Part shown: piece by piece, positions 1 through 10,198 of the stretch
Layout of the letters: the number at the start of each line of letters is the position of its first letter
Numbering within the stretch: position 1 is the first letter of the stretch
Virus record (IMG/VR): IMGVR_UViG_2531839473_000010
Location: 1-10,198 of that record
Source of the DNA: a virus
Taxonomy: Duplodnaviria; Heunggongvirae; Uroviricota; Caudoviricetes
Reading direction: 5' to 3' (one strand)
Length of the DNA: 10,198 nt
Program-made: the position numbers and the translations under genes
The notes under the pieces: generated by a model
Database searches by the model: none
Told to the model about the DNA's origin: nothing
Seen by the model: the letters and a program-made list of their open reading frames with translations, nothing else

Positions 1-1074
1 TCATTTGTCGATTTCAATTTTGTCCCATTCCCGTCCACGGCTGTCCCTATACCGCGCCGCCATTGAATCTGATTTATGCCCGAGAAGACGTTGAGCAAAC
101 TTATCGCCAATCTGGTTCCGGTATAGCCTCGCCGACAGGCTACGCAGTTCATGGAATGTTGGCGGGTCTCCATCAAATGAGAGTCCTGATGCATTTCTCG
201 CCTTTGTAAAATACTTCGATACTGTTTTCGGGGAAAGCGGATCGTGATGCTTTGATGCGATTATTGTTTCACTGCTGCTGGCCTCCCTGCATTTCTGTAG
301 TGTATCAGCCAATGAGATATTGAGCGCGTCAATCGTTAGCGTTAGCGGAATGGCGAGTTTAGCCCCTGTTTTACTCTGTTCAATGTGAAGATGGTTGTCG
401 TTTATGTCTGACCATTTCATTCTGCACAAATCGCCGACTCTCTGCCCTGTAACGACGGCCAAATCCATCGCCAGCCTTAGCCAGATAGGGAGAGGTTCGG
501 CTGCATGGTAAATCTCGACATACTCATTAGCTGTCAGCCTTGAGCGCCTTACTTCTGACTTTGCTGTACGGGTTGCTGTTACCGGATTCGTTGCCACATG
601 CCCCTCGGCTATTGCTTCACGAAAAACGTCAACAAGGGTTGATCTGATTAATTTTGCGGAGGCCGCTTTACCTTCTGCTACGTAGGTGTTTAGCATTGTT
701 GCCACCTCTTTCGTTGATATGTCAGCGAGCGGTTTGTCCGGCAATTTTCTTCGGATTGCCCTGATTTTGCTGGCGTAGTCGAGTAGAGTTTTCGGCCTGA
801 TACCCCTCTCGCTGAGGATTGTTTCATATCGGTCAAGCCACACATGAAGAGTGATTACGTCAGCGCCTTTAATTCTGTCTATCAGTGACTCACGCCTGTT
901 CTCGGATAGCAACTCAATATTGGCCTGAATAGCCTCTGAAACTGCTATCCTTCTGTCTCTGCCTAATCCGAACTCTTTACCCGTCCTTGGGTCCCTGTAG
1001 CAGTAATATCCATTGTTTCTTATATAAAGGTTAGGGGGTAAATCCCGGCGCTCATGACTTCGCCTTCTTCCCAT
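1..1074 (-). CDS. int: Lambda-family tyrosine integrase (357 aa); the window begins at its stop codon
   Basis: Full-length ORF. N-terminus MGRRRSHERRDLPPNLYIRNNGYYCYRDPRTGKEFGLGRDRR matches recalled lambda Int nearly residue for residue. C-terminal region contains HELRSL, LLGHKS and a tyrosine in ARYRD consistent with the tyrosine-recombinase catalytic set. Start overlaps xis by 23 nt as in lambda. Confidence 0.95.
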   Translation of the reverse strand: MGRRRSHERRDLPPNLYIRNNGYYCYRDPRTGKEFGLGRDRRIAVSEAIQANIELLSENRRESLIDRIKGADVITLHVWLDRYETILSERGIRPKTLLDYASKIRAIRRKLPDKPLADISTKEVATMLNTYVAEGKAASAKLIRSTLVDVFREAIAEGHVATNPVTATRTAKSEVRRSRLTANEYVEIYHAAEPLPIWLRLAMDLAVVTGQRVGDLCRMKWSDINDNHLHIEQSKTGAKLAIPLTLTIDALNISLADTLQKCREASSSETIIASKHHDPLSPKTVSKYFTKARNASGLSFDGDPPTFHELRSLSARLYRNQIGDKFAQRLLGHKSDSMAARYRDSRGREWDKIEIDK

Positions 1075-1270
1075 TTCTGATCCTCTTCAAAAGGCTACCT
1101 GTTACTGGTCGATTTAAGTCAACCTTTACCGCTGATTCGTGGAACAGATACTCTCTTCCATCCTTAACCGGAGGAGGGAATATCCTGCATTCGCGCACCC
1201 ATCGACGAACTGTTTCAAGACTTCTTGGACGTCGCTGGCGTGCGTTCCACTCCTGAAGTGTTAAGTACAT
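1052..1270 (-). CDS. xis: Excisionase Xis (72 aa), starting at the internal ATG of the 95-aa tool ORF
   Basis: From MYLTLQEWNARQRRPRSLETVRRWVRECRIFPPPVKDGREYLFHESAVKVDLNRPVTG..LLKRIRNGKKAKS the protein matches recalled lambda Xis. GGAG lies 9 nt upstream of the ATG at 1270. The longer N-terminal extension has no counterpart and is probably not translated. Confidence 0.9.
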   Translation of the reverse strand: MYLTLQEWNARQRRPRSLETVRRWVRECRIFPPPVKDGREYLFHESAVKVDLNRPVTGSLLKRIRNGKKAKS

Positions 1271-1292
1271 CGCAAAGTCTCCGCAATTACAC

Positions 1293-1318
1293 GCAAGAAA
1301 AAGCCGCATTGATGCGGC
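1293..1318 (-). terminator. Candidate intrinsic terminator or attenuator between the 114-aa ORF and xis
   Basis: Minus strand reads GCCGCA-TCAA-TGCGGC (6-bp perfect stem, plus 1303-1318) followed by TTTTTCTTG. It sits inside the PL-type operon, so it would be read through under N antitermination. Confidence 0.4.
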
Positions 1319-1374
1319 GATGGTAGGTCTGGATATCATTGAGCAATGAACAGGCCGGCGGTGTTATTTCATGG

Positions 1375-6664: not shown

Positions 6665-7288
6665 CTATGCGGCCTCGGAAGGAAGTCCAATCATCTTATT
6701 CAAATCTTCTACCCGTAAAGCAGGAAGTGCTGTACTTGCTTTATCTGCTTCTTTTGGTAGCAATTCTTTGCTTTCAGGCCAAACCTCAATAAGTCGCTTA
6801 ACTGTTGTGACTGAGTTCAAAGCAGCCCATACATTTGATTCGATATCATTTTTCTTGGCTTCAAGTTTTTGTTGCAATGCGCAGATTTCATCAAACCTTT
6901 TTGTTATTTCGTGTTCTGCGCTAAACATGCATTTATCTTTTTTCGGAGTAGGGAGCAATATATCTTCGCCGTTGCCGTCTTTCCCATATGAATGCCATCC
7001 AACCCTTCTGCCAGATACAGTCAGATAAATTGAAGTAGAACGAACATCGTATGAGTAAAATGAACATCCCAGTTTTTCAAGTTCTTCACTTATAGCTACT
7101 AACTTGGAATATAAATGATCCACTTCCTCAGTTTTCTTTTTACCGCCAAACGCAATAACTCTGGCGTCAAGTGCAAGCTGGTTCTTTAACTTTGTTACTT
7201 CTTCAAGTTCAGTGAAAACCCCAGACTTAATTAAATCGTTACGAGCGATTTCCTCTTTCATTCTCGTAGTTAAGCGGATTGATGACAT
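6665..7288 (-). CDS. Hypothetical protein (207 aa from the ATG at 7288; the tool ORF is 227 aa), uncharacterised accessory gene
   Basis: The ATG at 7286-7288 has GAGG about 8 nt upstream. Lys/Glu-rich with predicted helical segments; no catalytic motif recognised. Occupies the ral/ea10 position of lambda, divergent from the sieB-like gene. Confidence 0.6.
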   Translation of the reverse strand: MSSIRLTTRMKEEIARNDLIKSGVFTELEEVTKLKNQLALDARVIAFGGKKKTEEVDHLYSKLVAISEELEKLGCSFYSYDVRSTSIYLTVSGRRVGWHSYGKDGNGEDILLPTPKKDKCMFSAEHEITKRFDEICALQQKLEAKKNDIESNVWAALNSVTTVKRLIEVWPESKELLPKEADKASTALPALRVEDLNKMIGLPSEAA

Positions 7289-7432
7289 ATTAATTCCTCT
7301 CAAATAAGTGGTTTGCTGCCTAATTTCATTTTCTGGCGACCAACACAAGTCACACCCATTTCACTGCGTGGCTTGCGGTAGTAAAGATTGTGCCTGTCTT
7401 TTAACCACATCAGGCTCGGTGGTTCTCGTGTA

Positions 7433-7498: not shown

Positions 7499-8038
7499 AT
7501 GAGTAACTGGTGGCAGGAACTATTACGTTTCTTCCTGCGTGGTCTTACGCTACAACAGTTAATTCATATGCTTATTATTTTAATTGCCTTGATAATAATC
7601 ACCCCTGCATCAATTAAAGAGTGGGTAGATATAAGGAACCCAGAAATACTTCCAGATCACTGGATGTATTACGCAATGCTTTTGTGTATCAGTTATGTTC
7701 TGAACAGGGTGATGGAGTTTATATTTCTGGCATCTTCAGACAGATATAAAAAATATCTCAGTAAGAGAGATGAGGCTAAAGTAATTGTGGAGACTGAGCG
7801 CCTGTTCAATTCTCTGAGTATTCAGGAAAAAGAGGTTTTAGCATTTGCTGTTATGGCAAATAACAAAATCGTACTTAAGCACGGCGATCCGGTCGCTTTA
7901 TCTCTTATGAGAAAAGGCCTTCTCCATCGCTCAGGTGTGACTTACAGCGCGTCAGGTAAAGAGAAATTTGTTATACCTGACGTCTGGTTCCATGAGTGTT
8001 ATATGCGCTTTGCTGGTAAAGCTGATGAGCTAATTTAG
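7499..8038 (+). CDS. sieB: SieB-like superinfection-exclusion membrane protein (179 aa)
   Basis: The only plus-strand gene inside the leftward operon, convergent with and immediately adjacent to the N-like gene, as I recall for lambda sieB. Two hydrophobic helices (LIHMLIILIALIIITPASI and YYAMLLCISYVLNRVMEFIFLA). Assignment rests on synteny and topology, not on recognised sequence identity. Confidence 0.5.
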   Translation: MSNWWQELLRFFLRGLTLQQLIHMLIILIALIIITPASIKEWVDIRNPEILPDHWMYYAMLLCISYVLNRVMEFIFLASSDRYKKYLSKRDEAKVIVETERLFNSLSIQEKEVLAFAVMANNKIVLKHGDPVALSLMRKGLLHRSGVTYSASGKEKFVIPDVWFHECYMRFAGKADELI

Positions 8039-8059: not shown

Positions 8060-8332
8060 TCACCTCGCTGTCAGTTGTTTTGATTTCCGGTAGCCTGCCG
8101 CGTAAAGAGCTACGTTCGGAAGACAAGTTGAGCCTTCATATTTTCTGGTCAACGTTGTCAGTGTTATTACTTCTGCTCTCATTGCTGGTTTGCGCTTGCA
8201 TTGCAAGACCACTCGTGAAGGGGTTGGCCTGTGTAGCTTGTCGGAGCTGATCGCCTCCTGACTTTGCAGATTTGCACGACGAGCTCTACGGCGAGAAGCT
8301 GCGGTGCCTTTAAATTCTGTTTTTCTGGACAT
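8060..8332 (-). CDS. N: N-like transcription antiterminator (90 aa from the ATG at 8332; the tool ORF is 114 aa)
   Basis: N-terminal arginine-rich motif GTAASRRRARRANLQ. C-terminus ...LPNVALYAAGYRKSKQLTAR resembles the P22/phi21-type N proteins as recalled. GGAGG ribosome-binding site at 5-nt spacing. First gene downstream of the predicted PL and nutL. Confidence 0.7.
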   Translation of the reverse strand: MSRKTEFKGTAASRRRARRANLQSQEAISSDKLHRPTPSRVVLQCKRKPAMRAEVITLTTLTRKYEGSTCLPNVALYAAGYRKSKQLTAR

Positions 8333-8430
8333 GGATTCCTCCCGAATAAACTTTGGCGATGCAATCTCGAAGCCCCTCCTGAGAGGGTTGCTTCGGCATT
8401 GCATCCCACAGCTTATGTGGTTGGGTGATC

Positions 8431-8522: not shown

Positions 8523-8598
8523 ATAGTACGATGTGTACTTTACTGAGTCAATACAAAATGTTCTAAATATGGTTTAGTTTTTTATAACGCTTTGTATT
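8523..8598 (-). promoter_or_regulatory. Candidate PL promoter with three OL operator sites
   Basis: Minus strand -35 TTGACT (plus 8546-8551), 17-bp spacer, -10 TACTAT (plus 8523-8528). Fifteen-bp sites on the plus strand: AGTACGATGTGTACT (8525-8539, perfect 5-N5-5 palindrome), AATACAAAATGTTCT (8550-8564) and ATAACGCTTTGTATT (8584-8598). All share AC-N5-GT spacing with the OR sites. Confidence 0.45.
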
Positions 8599-8616
8599 TT
8601 ATTGATTTATATTTTG

Positions 8617-8645
8617 GAAAAAGAAAACCCGACGCTAAGGTCGGG
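8617..8645 (-). terminator. Intrinsic terminator downstream of the repressor gene
   Basis: Minus strand reads CCCGAC-CTTAGC-GTCGGG followed by TTTTCTTTTTCC, beginning about 30 nt after the cI stop. Confidence 0.55.
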
Positions 8646-8677
8646 TTATTGTTGTGTGTTTTAGAGTGGTGAGGCTG

Positions 8678-9337
8678 TTAACTAAATGTCTCTTCAGGCC
8701 ACTGGCTGGCGATAACTTTCCCTACTACGGAACAGCTATCATTGCATGGAATCATTGGATATTGCGGGTTTAGTGGTTGTAGGAACACCTGACCGCTATC
8801 CCTGATCAGTTTCTTGAAGGTAAACTCGTCACCACCAAGTCTGGCTATGCAGAAATCACCTGGCTCAACAGCCTGCTCAGGGTCAACGAGAATTAACATC
8901 CCGTCAGGAAAGCTTGGCTTGGATCCTGTTGGCGCGGTCATGGAATTACCTTCAACTTCAAGCCAAAACGCACAATCACTGGCTTTTTTGGTTGTGCTGA
9001 CCCATCTCTCCGCATCACCTTTGGTAAAGGTTCTAAGCTCAGGCGAGAACATCCCAGCCTGAACATGAGAAAAAACAGGGTACTCATATTGTTTTTTAAC
9101 GGGGGCAGATGAGTATTCGCCAACAGGTGAAAATGTACCGTCGTGGTTGAATGAGACGTTATCAATACCAAGGTATTTAAACACCACACCAATCTCGTCA
9201 AGAGATGGATGACGATATCCGCGCAACCAGTGACCAATTCCACCCTGCGTCATACCAAGCTCTTCAGCTAACTTCTCTTGAGTTATGCCGAGCTCTTTCA
9301 TTCTGGATCTAGCCAGTTCATACCATTTCATTTTCAT
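8678..9337 (-). CDS. cI: cI-type prophage repressor (about 219 aa from the ATG at 9337): HTH_XRE N-terminal domain plus LexA/S24-like autocleavage C-terminal domain
   Basis: The C-terminal segment from [38 protein letters not shown] through [88 protein letters not shown] matches recalled lambda cI almost exactly, including the Ser/Lys dyad. The N-terminal DNA-binding domain ([44 protein letters not shown]...) is not lambda's. The tool start at 9499 would extend into the operator region; the ATGs at 9337 and 9331 are more plausible. Confidence 0.85.
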
Positions 9338-9346
9338 ACCCTTATT

Positions 9347-9421
9347 ATTACGCTCTGTACTAAAATCATCCATGCACAAGATGTATTTTTGTTTGCATTC
9401 TAAAAGTACATATCGTATTAT
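9347..9421. promoter_or_regulatory. Candidate OR operator cluster with PR promoter (PRM not resolved)
   Basis: Sites ATTACGCTCTGTACT (9347-9361), TGCACAAGATGTATT (9373-9387, weaker) and AGTACATATCGTATT (9405-9419). Plus-strand PR: -35 TTGCAT (9393-9398), 17-bp spacer, -10 TATTAT (9416-9421), about 20-nt leader to the cro-like ATG. The last site overlaps the -10, as expected for an OR1-type site. Confidence 0.45.
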
Positions 9422-9447
9422 TGCGTTATGATTACTATGGAGGGCAT

Positions 9448-9663
9448 ATGAGCAACCTACGAAAATATCGAGAGTCACTGAATATCTCTCAAACAACACT
9501 TGCTAAGGCAGTTGGATGCACACAGGGAGCTATCGGACATTGGGAATCTGGTCGTCGCTTCCCAGACCTTAAAACATGCCGTGCTCTTGTTGAGTGCCTA
9601 AACAAGTTAGGCGCAAAAGTCAGTCTTGATGACGTGTTCCCGCCGGAACACAAAGCTGCTTAA
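9448..9663 (+). CDS. cro: Cro-like HTH_XRE regulator (71 aa from the ATG at 9448)
   Basis: Divergent from the repressor across the operator region. GGAGG ribosome-binding site 4 nt upstream. Its helix-turn-helix ([22 protein letters not shown]) closely parallels the repressor's ([22 protein letters not shown]), consistent with shared operators. Confidence 0.7.
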
Positions 9664-9673
9664 TAAGCGGATC

Positions 9674-9719
9674 CGCTCTTTGTAACAACGGACATTCGTC
9701 CTACGTCGCTGAAAAGCGA
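9674..9719 (+). promoter_or_regulatory. Candidate nutR site: boxA, spacer hairpin, boxB
   Basis: CGCTCTTTGTAACAAC (boxA-like), hairpin GGAC-ATTC-GTCC, TACG, then TCGCT-GAAA-AGCGA (boxB-like). Begins 11 nt after the cro stop. A perfect palindrome AGCGGATCCGCT (9666-9677) overlaps the 5' edge of boxA. Confidence 0.6.
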
Positions 9720-9763
9720 GTCCCAATATATCTGACCAACTAAGGCCATATGCGTTTCCACGC

Positions 9764-10198
9764 TGAACCGCCCCGGGTTTCCTGGAGAGTGTTTTATCTG
9801 TGAACTCAGGCTGCCAGATCATTGTTTCCGATGGAAGCATAATAAGCTTTTTCTGCTTCTGCCGGAGGAGTATGGCCCAGCCTTCCCAGCAATCGTCGAT
9901 TGTTATACCAGTCCACCCACGTGAGTGTGGCCAGTTCCACTTCTGCACGGTTTTTCCAGCTCTTACGGTGTATTACCTCCGCTTTGTAAAGACCATTGAT
10001 GCTCTCAGCCATCGCGTTGTCATACGAGTCGCCTGTACTCCCTGTTGATGCCAGCAGTTTTGCTTCTTTTAGTCGCTCCGTATAGGCCAGTGACACATAC
10101 TGAGAGCCTTTATCGCTGTGATGGATGGTGCCAGACGGACGACGGGCCCAGAACGCCTGCTCCAGCGCATCCAGCACGAATGTCGTTTCCATAGACGA
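9764..10198 (-). mobile_element. IS3-family insertion sequence, partial (one end only; continues past the window edge)
   Basis: Terminus TGAACCGCCCCGGGTTTCCTGGAGA starts at 9764 with the TG typical of IS3-family ends, and resembles the recalled IS629/IS3411-type inverted repeat. It contains the 3' part of a transposase gene on the minus strand. Confidence 0.75.
9806..10198 (-). CDS. IS3-family transposase OrfB (integrase-core/DDE domain), C-terminal part; 5' end lies outside the window
   Basis: IHHSDKGSQYVS..., DSYDNAMAESINGLYKAEVIH... and WVDWYNNRRLLGRLGHTPPAEAE are the hallmark of the IS3-family OrfB catalytic core C-terminus. The reading frame runs to the window edge. Confidence 0.85.
   Translation of the reverse strand, partial: SSMETTFVLDALEQAFWARRPSGTIHHSDKGSQYVSLAYTERLKEAKLLASTGSTGDSYDNAMAESINGLYKAEVIHRKSWKNRAEVELATLTWVDWYNNRRLLGRLGHTPPAEAEKAYYASIGNNDLAA

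Follow-up and report, generated by a model that had tools for sequence, protein, structure and literature searches.

Gene content of the window

The window, that is, the whole stretch of 10,198 nucleotides analyzed here, carries the early-left arm and the immunity region of a lambdoid prophage, as judged from its Pfam domains and gene order. The genes, the domains of the repressor and the terminator are located as follows.

1-1339, minus strand: integrase and excisionase genes
Between the excisionase gene and SieB: genes of an Ea22-like protein, an Rv2179c-like exonuclease, SSB, a Rad52-like recombinase and a Nmad5-domain protein
Left of the N gene, plus strand: SieB
8060-8404, minus strand: N antiterminator gene (Pfam N_peptide, E 2.5e-32), transcribed from PL
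8626-8647, minus strand: intrinsic terminator after cI, then TTCTTTTTCC (terminator scan; fold -12.4 kcal/mol, z = -3.98)
8678-9337, minus strand: cI repressor, 219 aa, starting with MKMKWYEL (Pfam HTH_3 and Peptidase_S24; PDB 3bdn)
8678-9088, minus strand: lambda-type C-terminal module of cI, with the Ala-Gly cleavage site, the Ser/Lys catalytic dyad and the dimerization and cooperativity surface (by identity to lambda cI)
9089-9337, minus strand: VT2-Sakai-type N-terminal helix-turn-helix (HTH) DNA-binding domain and linker of cI (by identity to the cI of relatives)
9448-9663, plus strand: cro, 71 aa, of HTH_3 type (Pfam HTH_3, E 1.4e-12)
9764-10198, minus strand: end of an IS3-family (IS1203/IS629-like) element with an rve-domain transposase, cutting the rightward operon before cII

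The terminator, a strong one, is placed directly 3′ of cI. Neither rexAB nor any other gene is found between cI and the left operators, and the OL-OR distance is therefore only ~0.82 kb. To the right of cro, the alignment shows that homology to relatives runs through nutR and ends at 9763. There, the IS1203/IS629-like end starts with TGAACCGCCCCGGG, about 40 bp short of the position where cII begins in relatives, and the element takes the place of cII 100 bp downstream of cro. An identical cro-IS junction exists in Escherichia coli strain 350, with an IS1203-family annotation and a rearranged region beyond it. The Rfam scan of the whole window gave no match at gathering thresholds.

The two domains of the repressor and Cro

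The cI protein combines an HTH_3 domain (residues 11-58, Pfam E 3.6e-11) with a C-terminal Peptidase_S24 domain (PF00717, E 8.9e-29), and matches the full-length lambda repressor 3bdn in PDB (E 1.4e-96). Together with its Ala-Gly site and Ser/Lys dyad, this domain content is that of the LexA or lambda cI-type autocleaving phage repressors.

From the sequence YEYPVF to the C-terminal end, 133 of the 136 residues (98%) are the same as in lambda cI, and 383 of the 411 nucleotides of the module are shared. Thus, the near-exact lambda match stated in the initial annotation was borne out by the alignment to lambda cI. The motifs VQAGMF, GNSM and FKKLI are identical to those around A111-G112, S149 and K192 of lambda, and on the basis of the 98% identity RecA-stimulated self-cleavage is predicted for this cI. 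The codon differences (24 synonymous vs. 3 non-synonymous) indicate that the C-terminal domain is under strong purifying selection.

The nucleotide similarity to lambda begins at the stop codon of cI (8678) and stops abruptly near 9088, with background level on both sides. In this cassette, the type of the window, the VT2-Sakai type and lambda are at about the same distance from one another (92-93% nucleotide identity), which indicates an old, conserved and exchangeable cassette and not a recent capture from lambda itself. Since Salmonella phage g341c has a full-length homologue of this cI, the proposed "fusion" may have run in either direction, and lambda may just as well have received the shared C-terminal cassette.

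The N-terminal 83 residues show only 15/53 local identity to lambda (~28%). The description of this domain as different holds for its sequence, but the fold is the same HTH_3 lambda-repressor-like one, of which it is a diverged member. On the other hand, the domain is 95-99% identical to that of cI from phi458, 2B8, the Stx1 converting phage, PA phages and YYZ-2008, and its 21-residue HTH segment is identical in all relatives aligned. In the case of the VT2-Sakai record, the segment matches apart from an in-frame stop in that record. Just past the recognition helix, the cI of the window has a private Ser-to-Tyr change.

As had been noticed from the sequence beforehand, the N-terminal domain parallels the adjacent Cro (22/62 identity, 35%, E 5e-13), with nearly the same recognition helix (TQGGIGHW in cI, TQGAIGHW in Cro). 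By this resemblance, Cro is to be considered a paralogue of the N-terminal domain of cI. It is identical in 70-71 of 71 residues to the Cro of VT2-Sakai, the Stx1 phage, Dewey and UTAK-1. The PDB sequence matches of Cro comprise 28tn (E 2.4e-16) and, besides it, only P22 C2 N-terminal domains (E about 0.006). In a four-way alignment, the Cro of the window groups with that of phage g341c, and the Cro of phage P13374 groups with that of lambda.

In the database annotation of relatives (GenBank, RefSeq), cI begins at an upstream ATG (9373) and has 231 aa; this frame covers OR3 and reaches the edge of OR2. Such a start is probably too far upstream, and the true one is probably the ATG of MKMKWYEL at 9337 (an alternative ATG is found at 9331). 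Three arguments lead to this. First, OR3 falls within the 12 added codons. Second, the comparison of these codons with the Stx1 phage gives three non-synonymous and zero synonymous changes, with the operator left unchanged. Third, the g341c homologue keeps MKM(K/N)WY (as MKMNWY) and not the upstream residues.

Operators and promoters

The control elements on both sides of cI are listed below; the operators are given without strand, with their identity to the respective published VT2-Sa operator.

8523-8551, minus strand: PL, -35 TTGACT (8551-8546), 17-nt spacer, -10 TACTAT (8528-8523), from the promoter scan
8524-8540: OL1, TAGTACGATGTGTACTT, 16/17; weight matrix score 19.2; best palindrome; overlaps the -10 of PL
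8549-8565: OL2, CAATACAAAATGTTCTA, 15/17; overlaps the -35 of PL
8583-8599: OL3, TATAACGCTTTGTATTT, 16/17
9344-9372, minus strand: putative PRM, -10 AATAAT (9349-9344), weak -35 TGGATG (9372-9367), read from the sequence
9346-9362: OR3, TATTACGCTCTGTACTA, 16/17
9372-9388: OR2, ATGCACAAGATGTATTT, 15/17; weight matrix score 11.2; weakest match to the consensus
9392-9421, plus strand: PR, -35 TTTGCA (9392-9397), 18-nt spacer, -10 TATTAT (9416-9421), from the promoter scan
9404-9420: OR1, AAGTACATATCGTATTA, 15/17; weight matrix score 18.4; overlaps the -10 of PR

A 15-bp form, AKTACN5GTAYT, had been ascribed to all six operators. It is present exactly at 8525-8539, 9347-9361 and 9405-9419 (three sites, or four strand matches, against 0.06 expected in the whole window), whereas the candidates at 8550-8564, 8584-8598 and 9373-9387 miss it by one or two bases. 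When two mismatches are allowed, the window contains 29 matches against 19.3 expected, and therefore the three inexact sites would not stand out by the pattern alone.

A symmetrized weight matrix was built from the six VT2-Sakai (VT2-Sa) operators, OR1-3 and OL1-3, published in Supplementary Table S1 of PMC10742460. With this matrix, the six candidates rank above all other 17-mers of the window (scores 11.2-19.2, next best 9.5); at the score of OR2, a shuffled window is expected to yield ~0.6 sites by chance. Each candidate corresponds to one published operator at 15 or 16 of 17 positions, which upholds the proposed arrangement of three sites at OL and three at OR. The positions of the published sites were determined in AP000363 and AP005153, and the candidates differ from these sites at the central bases or at the outermost base.

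In alignments with Dewey, UTAK-1, the Stx1 phage and VT2-Sakai, 6 of 84 half-site columns vary, compared with 41 of 108 columns between the operators (Fisher p = 4.6e-7). For instance, bases 9346-9361 of OR3 are invariant in four aligned sequences and only the outermost base, 9362, varies. Dewey carries a better half-site of OR2, TGTAC. The half-site consensus is (T/A)A(G/A/T)TAC(A/G), in which A5 and C6 are invariant, and the full site is a 17-bp pseudo-palindrome of about TAGTACA-N3-TGTACTA. As far as sequence can tell, the six sites are confirmed as real, non-random operator candidates.

Centre-to-centre distances are 32 bp for OR1-OR2, 26 bp for OR2-OR3, 25 bp for OL1-OL2 and 34 bp for OL2-OL3. 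Among relatives, the OR1-OR2 spacing ranges from 32 to 34 bp, and the T-run between OR2 and the -35 of PR has 5, 6 or 7 T depending on the relative. This spacing is variable and, at 32 bp in the window, larger than the 24 bp of lambda, so that a lambda-like pairwise cooperativity at OR1-OR2 is not assured. As a speculation, the variable T-run, which sets the spacing, could tune the switch between lineages.

The location of PR is that of the "putative major rightward promoter" of AP005153, and the putative PRM coincides with its "putative maintenance promoter for CI". The overlap of operators with the hexamers of PL and PR, as initially claimed, is found for OL1, OL2 and OR1, but OR2 ends 4 bp before the -35 of PR and abuts the weak -35 of PRM; OR3 overlaps the -10 of PRM. 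The hexamers of PRM are weak. Judged from its -10, transcription would be expected to begin at A9337, which opens the MKMKWYEL start codon, or right beside it, and the cI mRNA is possibly leaderless. The centre of OR2 would then be at about -43 from this presumed start.

Immunity type, relatives and function

We consider this locus, with a probability of ~0.9, to be an immunity region of the VT2-Sakai (VT2-Sa) type, belonging to a lambdoid prophage and acting as a lambda-style bistable switch. Several lines of evidence lead to this reading. The domain content, the identity to the lambda structure, the sharp mosaic boundary and the paralogy of Cro with the N-terminal domain of cI form the first. 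The second consists of the one-to-one match to the six published VT2-Sa operators, the identical HTH and the 70-71/71 identity of Cro, and the third of the operator statistics, the conservation of half-sites, the promoter overlaps and the annotation of AP005153. Finally, equivalent sites of the form ATAC-N5-GTAT exist in g341c, and the surrounding genes (int, xis, Ea22-like, Rad52-like, SSB, SieB and N) give a lambdoid context. The mosaic lambdoid immunity region of the initial annotation, with a lambda-type C-terminal domain, a divergent DNA-binding domain and operators of its own, is therefore retained.

The construction of lambdoid repressors from exchangeable DNA-binding and oligomerization cassettes has stood in textbooks for decades. 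The specific VT2-Sakai case was described in 1999-2003, and the immunity type with its six operators was published in 2000, so that the finding is a correct rediscovery. According to the account of Fattah et al. 2000 in PMC10742460, the CI proteins of VT2-Sa and lambda have high C-terminal and low N-terminal homology, and VT2-Sa has six operators. OR1-3 and OL1-3 were also identified in Sakai-type (PST1) Stx2a phages (PMC4587872). The notes of AP000363 (VT2-Sakai) read "cI similar to CI repressor of bacteriophage lambda" and "cro similar to C2 of bacteriophage L". The record AP005153 (Stx1 converting phage), 92.7% identical over cI-cro, annotates three 17-bp "putative operator" OR sites, PR and PRM at exactly corresponding places. 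In consequence, the operator prediction is not a new one.

In the literature, no experiments on direct binding, footprinting or transcription were found for this repressor on these sites, the work of Fattah et al. 2000 being known here through citing papers. From what these papers convey, the published VT2-Sa operators seem to be based chiefly on sequence analysis together with immunity tests.

The closest known system is formed by VT2-Sakai / VT2-Sa (Sp5), the Stx1 converting phage AP005153, Stx2 II, 2851, Nil2, YYZ-2008, 1717 and the PA/PST1 phages. Besides the cI HTH, Cro and the operators, the places of PR and PRM and the lambda-like C-terminal domain are common to them and the window. On the contrary, the overall nucleotide identity is ~93%, three C-terminal residues of cI differ in addition to the Tyr for Ser after the recognition helix, and the operators differ in their centres and outer bases. 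The OL-OR distance is ~2.2 kb in VT2-Sakai, compared with ~0.82 kb in the window, which is without a gene between cI and OL. The sub-variant of the window is 98-99% identical to Dewey, Louie, vB_EcoP-683R2/720R6, phi458 and many E. coli prophages. Full-length matches of the immunity region are present in ~764 of 5426 complete E. coli genomes and in 61 phage records, of Stx and non-Stx phages alike.

Similarly to lambda, the window has three plus three 17-bp operators over PL, PR and PRM, a C-terminal domain with the same cleavage site and dyad, and an OR2 centre close to the -42 that lambda has relative to the start of PRM. The PRM transcript of lambda is leaderless, as may be the cI mRNA here. 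In contrast, the recognition helix differs from the QSGVGALFNG of lambda, Cro is an HTH_3 repressor paralogue and not the alpha+beta Cro of lambda, and the absence of rexAB is accompanied by an OL-OR distance of ~0.82 kb instead of 2.4 kb. The half-site is TAgTACa, compared with TATCACCGC in lambda. To call these operators unlike those of lambda was an overstatement, because although TAgTAC differs from TATCAC, both kinds share the 17-bp length, TA at positions 1-2 and AC at positions 5-6. With respect to the imm-lambda group (lambda, HK542, mEp234 and SfI), the window agrees in the C-terminal domain and departs from it in the N-terminal domain and helix, the operators and the fold of Cro.

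Phages 434 and P22 resemble the window in having a Cro that is a paralogue of the repressor N-terminus with a near-identical recognition helix, so that both proteins read the same operators. However, the sequence similarity is weak and the operator sequences are other ones. A close sharing of the lambda C-terminal domain by the 434 repressor, assumed at first, proved wrong, its identity to that of the window cI being 37%.

Full-length homologues are the C1/C2 proteins of the Salmonella P22-like phages g341c, epsilon34, SPN9CC and ST64T, with 54-55% identity in the N-terminal and ~79% in the C-terminal part. They likewise start with MKM(K/N)WY and carry annotated repressor sites, ATAC-N5-GTAT, where the OR sites of the window are placed. 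They differ by the recognition helix TKGAVSHWLNG, the host genus and a C-terminal domain that is not lambda-identical. The annotated repressor sites of g341c are ATACGATGTGTAT, at the position of OR1, and ATACAATTTGTAT, at the position of OR3. Since they are placed at equivalent positions, the specificity for nTAC-N5-GTAn is a property of this family of N-terminal domains.

The repressor of BAA2326 / P13374 (an O104:H4 Stx2a phage), footprinted by Chakraborty et al. 2018 (PMC5977221), is another lambda cI-related Stx-phage repressor, with three OR sites, OR2-dependent activation of PRM and a leaderless cI mRNA. It is 61% identical to lambda. From the similar look of the reverse complement of its OR1, ATTACGCACAGTTAT, it was at first suspected to be of the same immunity type. 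This candidate was rejected because its cI is lambda-like over the full length, including the N-terminal domain, its Cro is of lambda type and its C-terminal domain shares no more than 64% identity with that of the window cI; the operators are unrelated.

By homology with lambda, 434 and P22, the observed and conserved parts of the VT2-Sakai-type switch would work as follows. Dimers of cI on OR1 and on OL1/OL2 would shut off PR and PL, and a dimer on OR2 would activate PRM. Binding to OR3, which lies across the -10 of PRM, would produce negative autoregulation, probably aided by OL-OR looping over ~0.82 kb through the lambda-type C-terminal domain. Induction of the prophage would follow from RecA-stimulated cleavage of the conserved Ala-Gly bond. 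Cro would compete for the same sites, as in 434, and shut off PRM.

The heteroimmunity toward lambda that had been put forward is a natural inference from the different recognition helix, but PMC10742460 cites Fattah et al. [quoted passage not shown] A repressor that is functionally cross-immune with lambda, either by operator recognition or by mixed oligomers, would not be truly heteroimmune, and we regard this as improbable. In its favor, lambda CI binds all six VT2-Sa operators, with 3.7-6.4 µM (PMC10742460), the two kinds of operators share length and the TA..AC positions of the half-site, the recognition helices have Q-x-G-(V/I)-G in common, and the C-terminal domains are 98% identical. 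These micromolar affinities, however, are 1.2 to 30-fold weaker than those of lambda CI for its own sites (0.2-3 µM), were measured on isolated sites and may be near non-specific. The alignment further shows that residues with which lambda contacts DNA are changed (Ser45 to Gly, Asn55 to Arg), and half-site positions 3, 4 and 7-9 differ from lambda.

A related, speculative and on the whole unlikely idea is that co-resident repressors of lambda and VT2-Sakai immunity form mixed dimers, tetramers or octamers, and in this way link prophages that are otherwise heteroimmune, Stx phages among them, in their stability and induction. Such oligomers are conceivable since the C-terminal domain is 98% lambda-identical while the DNA-binding specificities are different but partly overlapping. 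If true, they could explain the reported cross-immunity of VT2-Sa and lambda.

It is also very improbable that the module is a decaying relic, in which cI, cro and the operators of a prophage made defective by the insertion after cro are no longer functional. The IS3-family element does occupy the cII region of relatives, and the private Tyr stands immediately past the recognition helix. Nevertheless, the reading frames of cI and cro are intact with all catalytic and cleavage residues conserved, the half-sites are kept in all six operators, and copies of the region in prophages whose cII and replication genes (cII-O-P) are intact show 99.4% identity to it. That the six palindromes are chance matches in AT-rich intergenic DNA, as the barely enriched two-mismatch count might suggest, is effectively refuted by the three exact sites, the confinement of the six top scores to OL and OR, the conservation of half-sites and the same ATAC-N5-GTAT core at equivalent sites of the 55%-diverged g341c system.

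Given the insertion after cro, the source prophage is probably defective, although its VT2-Sakai-type immunity module itself is, by its sequence, intact. In this copy, the IS element would split PR, cro and nutR from cII and anything downstream. The role of the module is now probably restricted to maintenance and to immunity against superinfecting phages of its own immunity type. The practical value of the finding is in annotation, as the immunity type of the prophage is that of VT2-Sakai. By this assignment, the host is predicted to resist superinfecting Stx phages that belong to this immunity group.

Translation start and sequence differences of cI

In the relatives, cI is annotated as a protein of 231 aa, read from the ATG equivalent to window position 9373. 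The N-terminal extension that this start produces (9338-9373, minus strand) contains OR3 and the presumed -10 element of PRM, and its evolution is non-synonymous. Translation of cI is likely to begin instead at the ATG at 9337, possibly as a leaderless message, or at the ATG at 9331, which is preceded 7 nt upstream by a Shine-Dalgarno-like AAGGG.

Directly past the recognition helix, the cI of the window carries a Tyr within RGYRHP (about 9158-9160), whereas Dewey, UTAK-1, the Stx1 converting phage and VT2-Sakai all have Ser at this position. In the alignment, the Tyr adjoins the position of lambda Asn55. In the VT2-Sakai record of 1999 (AP000363, 2465-2660), the recognition helix (MTQGG) has a stop in place of its Gln codon, and for this reason the record lists cI as a fragment of 169 aa. 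The Sakai-type PA phages and the Stx1 converting phage AP005153 have Gln at the same codon, and the stop is probably an artefact of sequencing or of the clone.

Spacing of the rightward operators

Between OR2 and the -35 element of PR there is a run of T (9385-9389), which numbers five in the window and in the Stx1 phage, six at the aligned position in Dewey and seven in UTAK-1. The spacing of OR1 and OR2 therefore ranges from 32 to 34 bp, and the position of OR2 relative to PRM is unaltered by this change.

Antitermination sites and the flanks of the immunity region

A nut site was located on each side, as follows:

9674-9719, plus strand: nutR, with boxA CGCTCTTT, spacer hairpin and boxB
8477-8431, minus strand: nutL, with boxA TGCTCTTTAA, spacer hairpin and boxB

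The order is alike in both, that is, boxA, a small spacer hairpin (GGAC-ATTC-GTCC in nutR, GTCGA-ACAC-TCGAC in nutL) and boxB, a 5-bp stem closed by a GAAA tetraloop (TCGCT-GAAA-AGCGA and TGGCT-GAAA-AGCCA, respectively). In contrast, the nut sites of lambda have a short spacer and a GAAAA pentaloop.

The interval between cI and OL (8600-8680) holds only a strong terminator (8626-8647), with neither rexA/rexB nor any other gene. In VT2-Sakai-type Stx phages this interval is longer by about 1.4 kb and has an additional ORF of 522 nt (orf22/b63).

Further features of the window are:

9764-10198: end portion of an element of the IS3 family (IS1203/IS629-like), inserted downstream of cro at a distance of 100 bp
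6665-7348, minus strand: protein with an Nmad5 domain (nucleotide modification associated domain 5; Pfam match at E 3.5e-70)
7499-8038: SieB, neighbor of the Nmad5 gene in divergent orientation

The IS3-family insertion separates PR-cro-nutR from cII in this prophage. E. coli strain 350 shares this cro-IS junction, and its IS is followed by a partial HNH gene and by nin genes. The Nmad5 gene sits within the PL operon.

The top solved-structure match of Cro (9448-9663) is PDB 28tn (E 2.4e-16, residues 1-69 aligned), an 82-aa protein titled "lambda repressor-like protein"; a solved structure thus exists for a close relative of this Cro.
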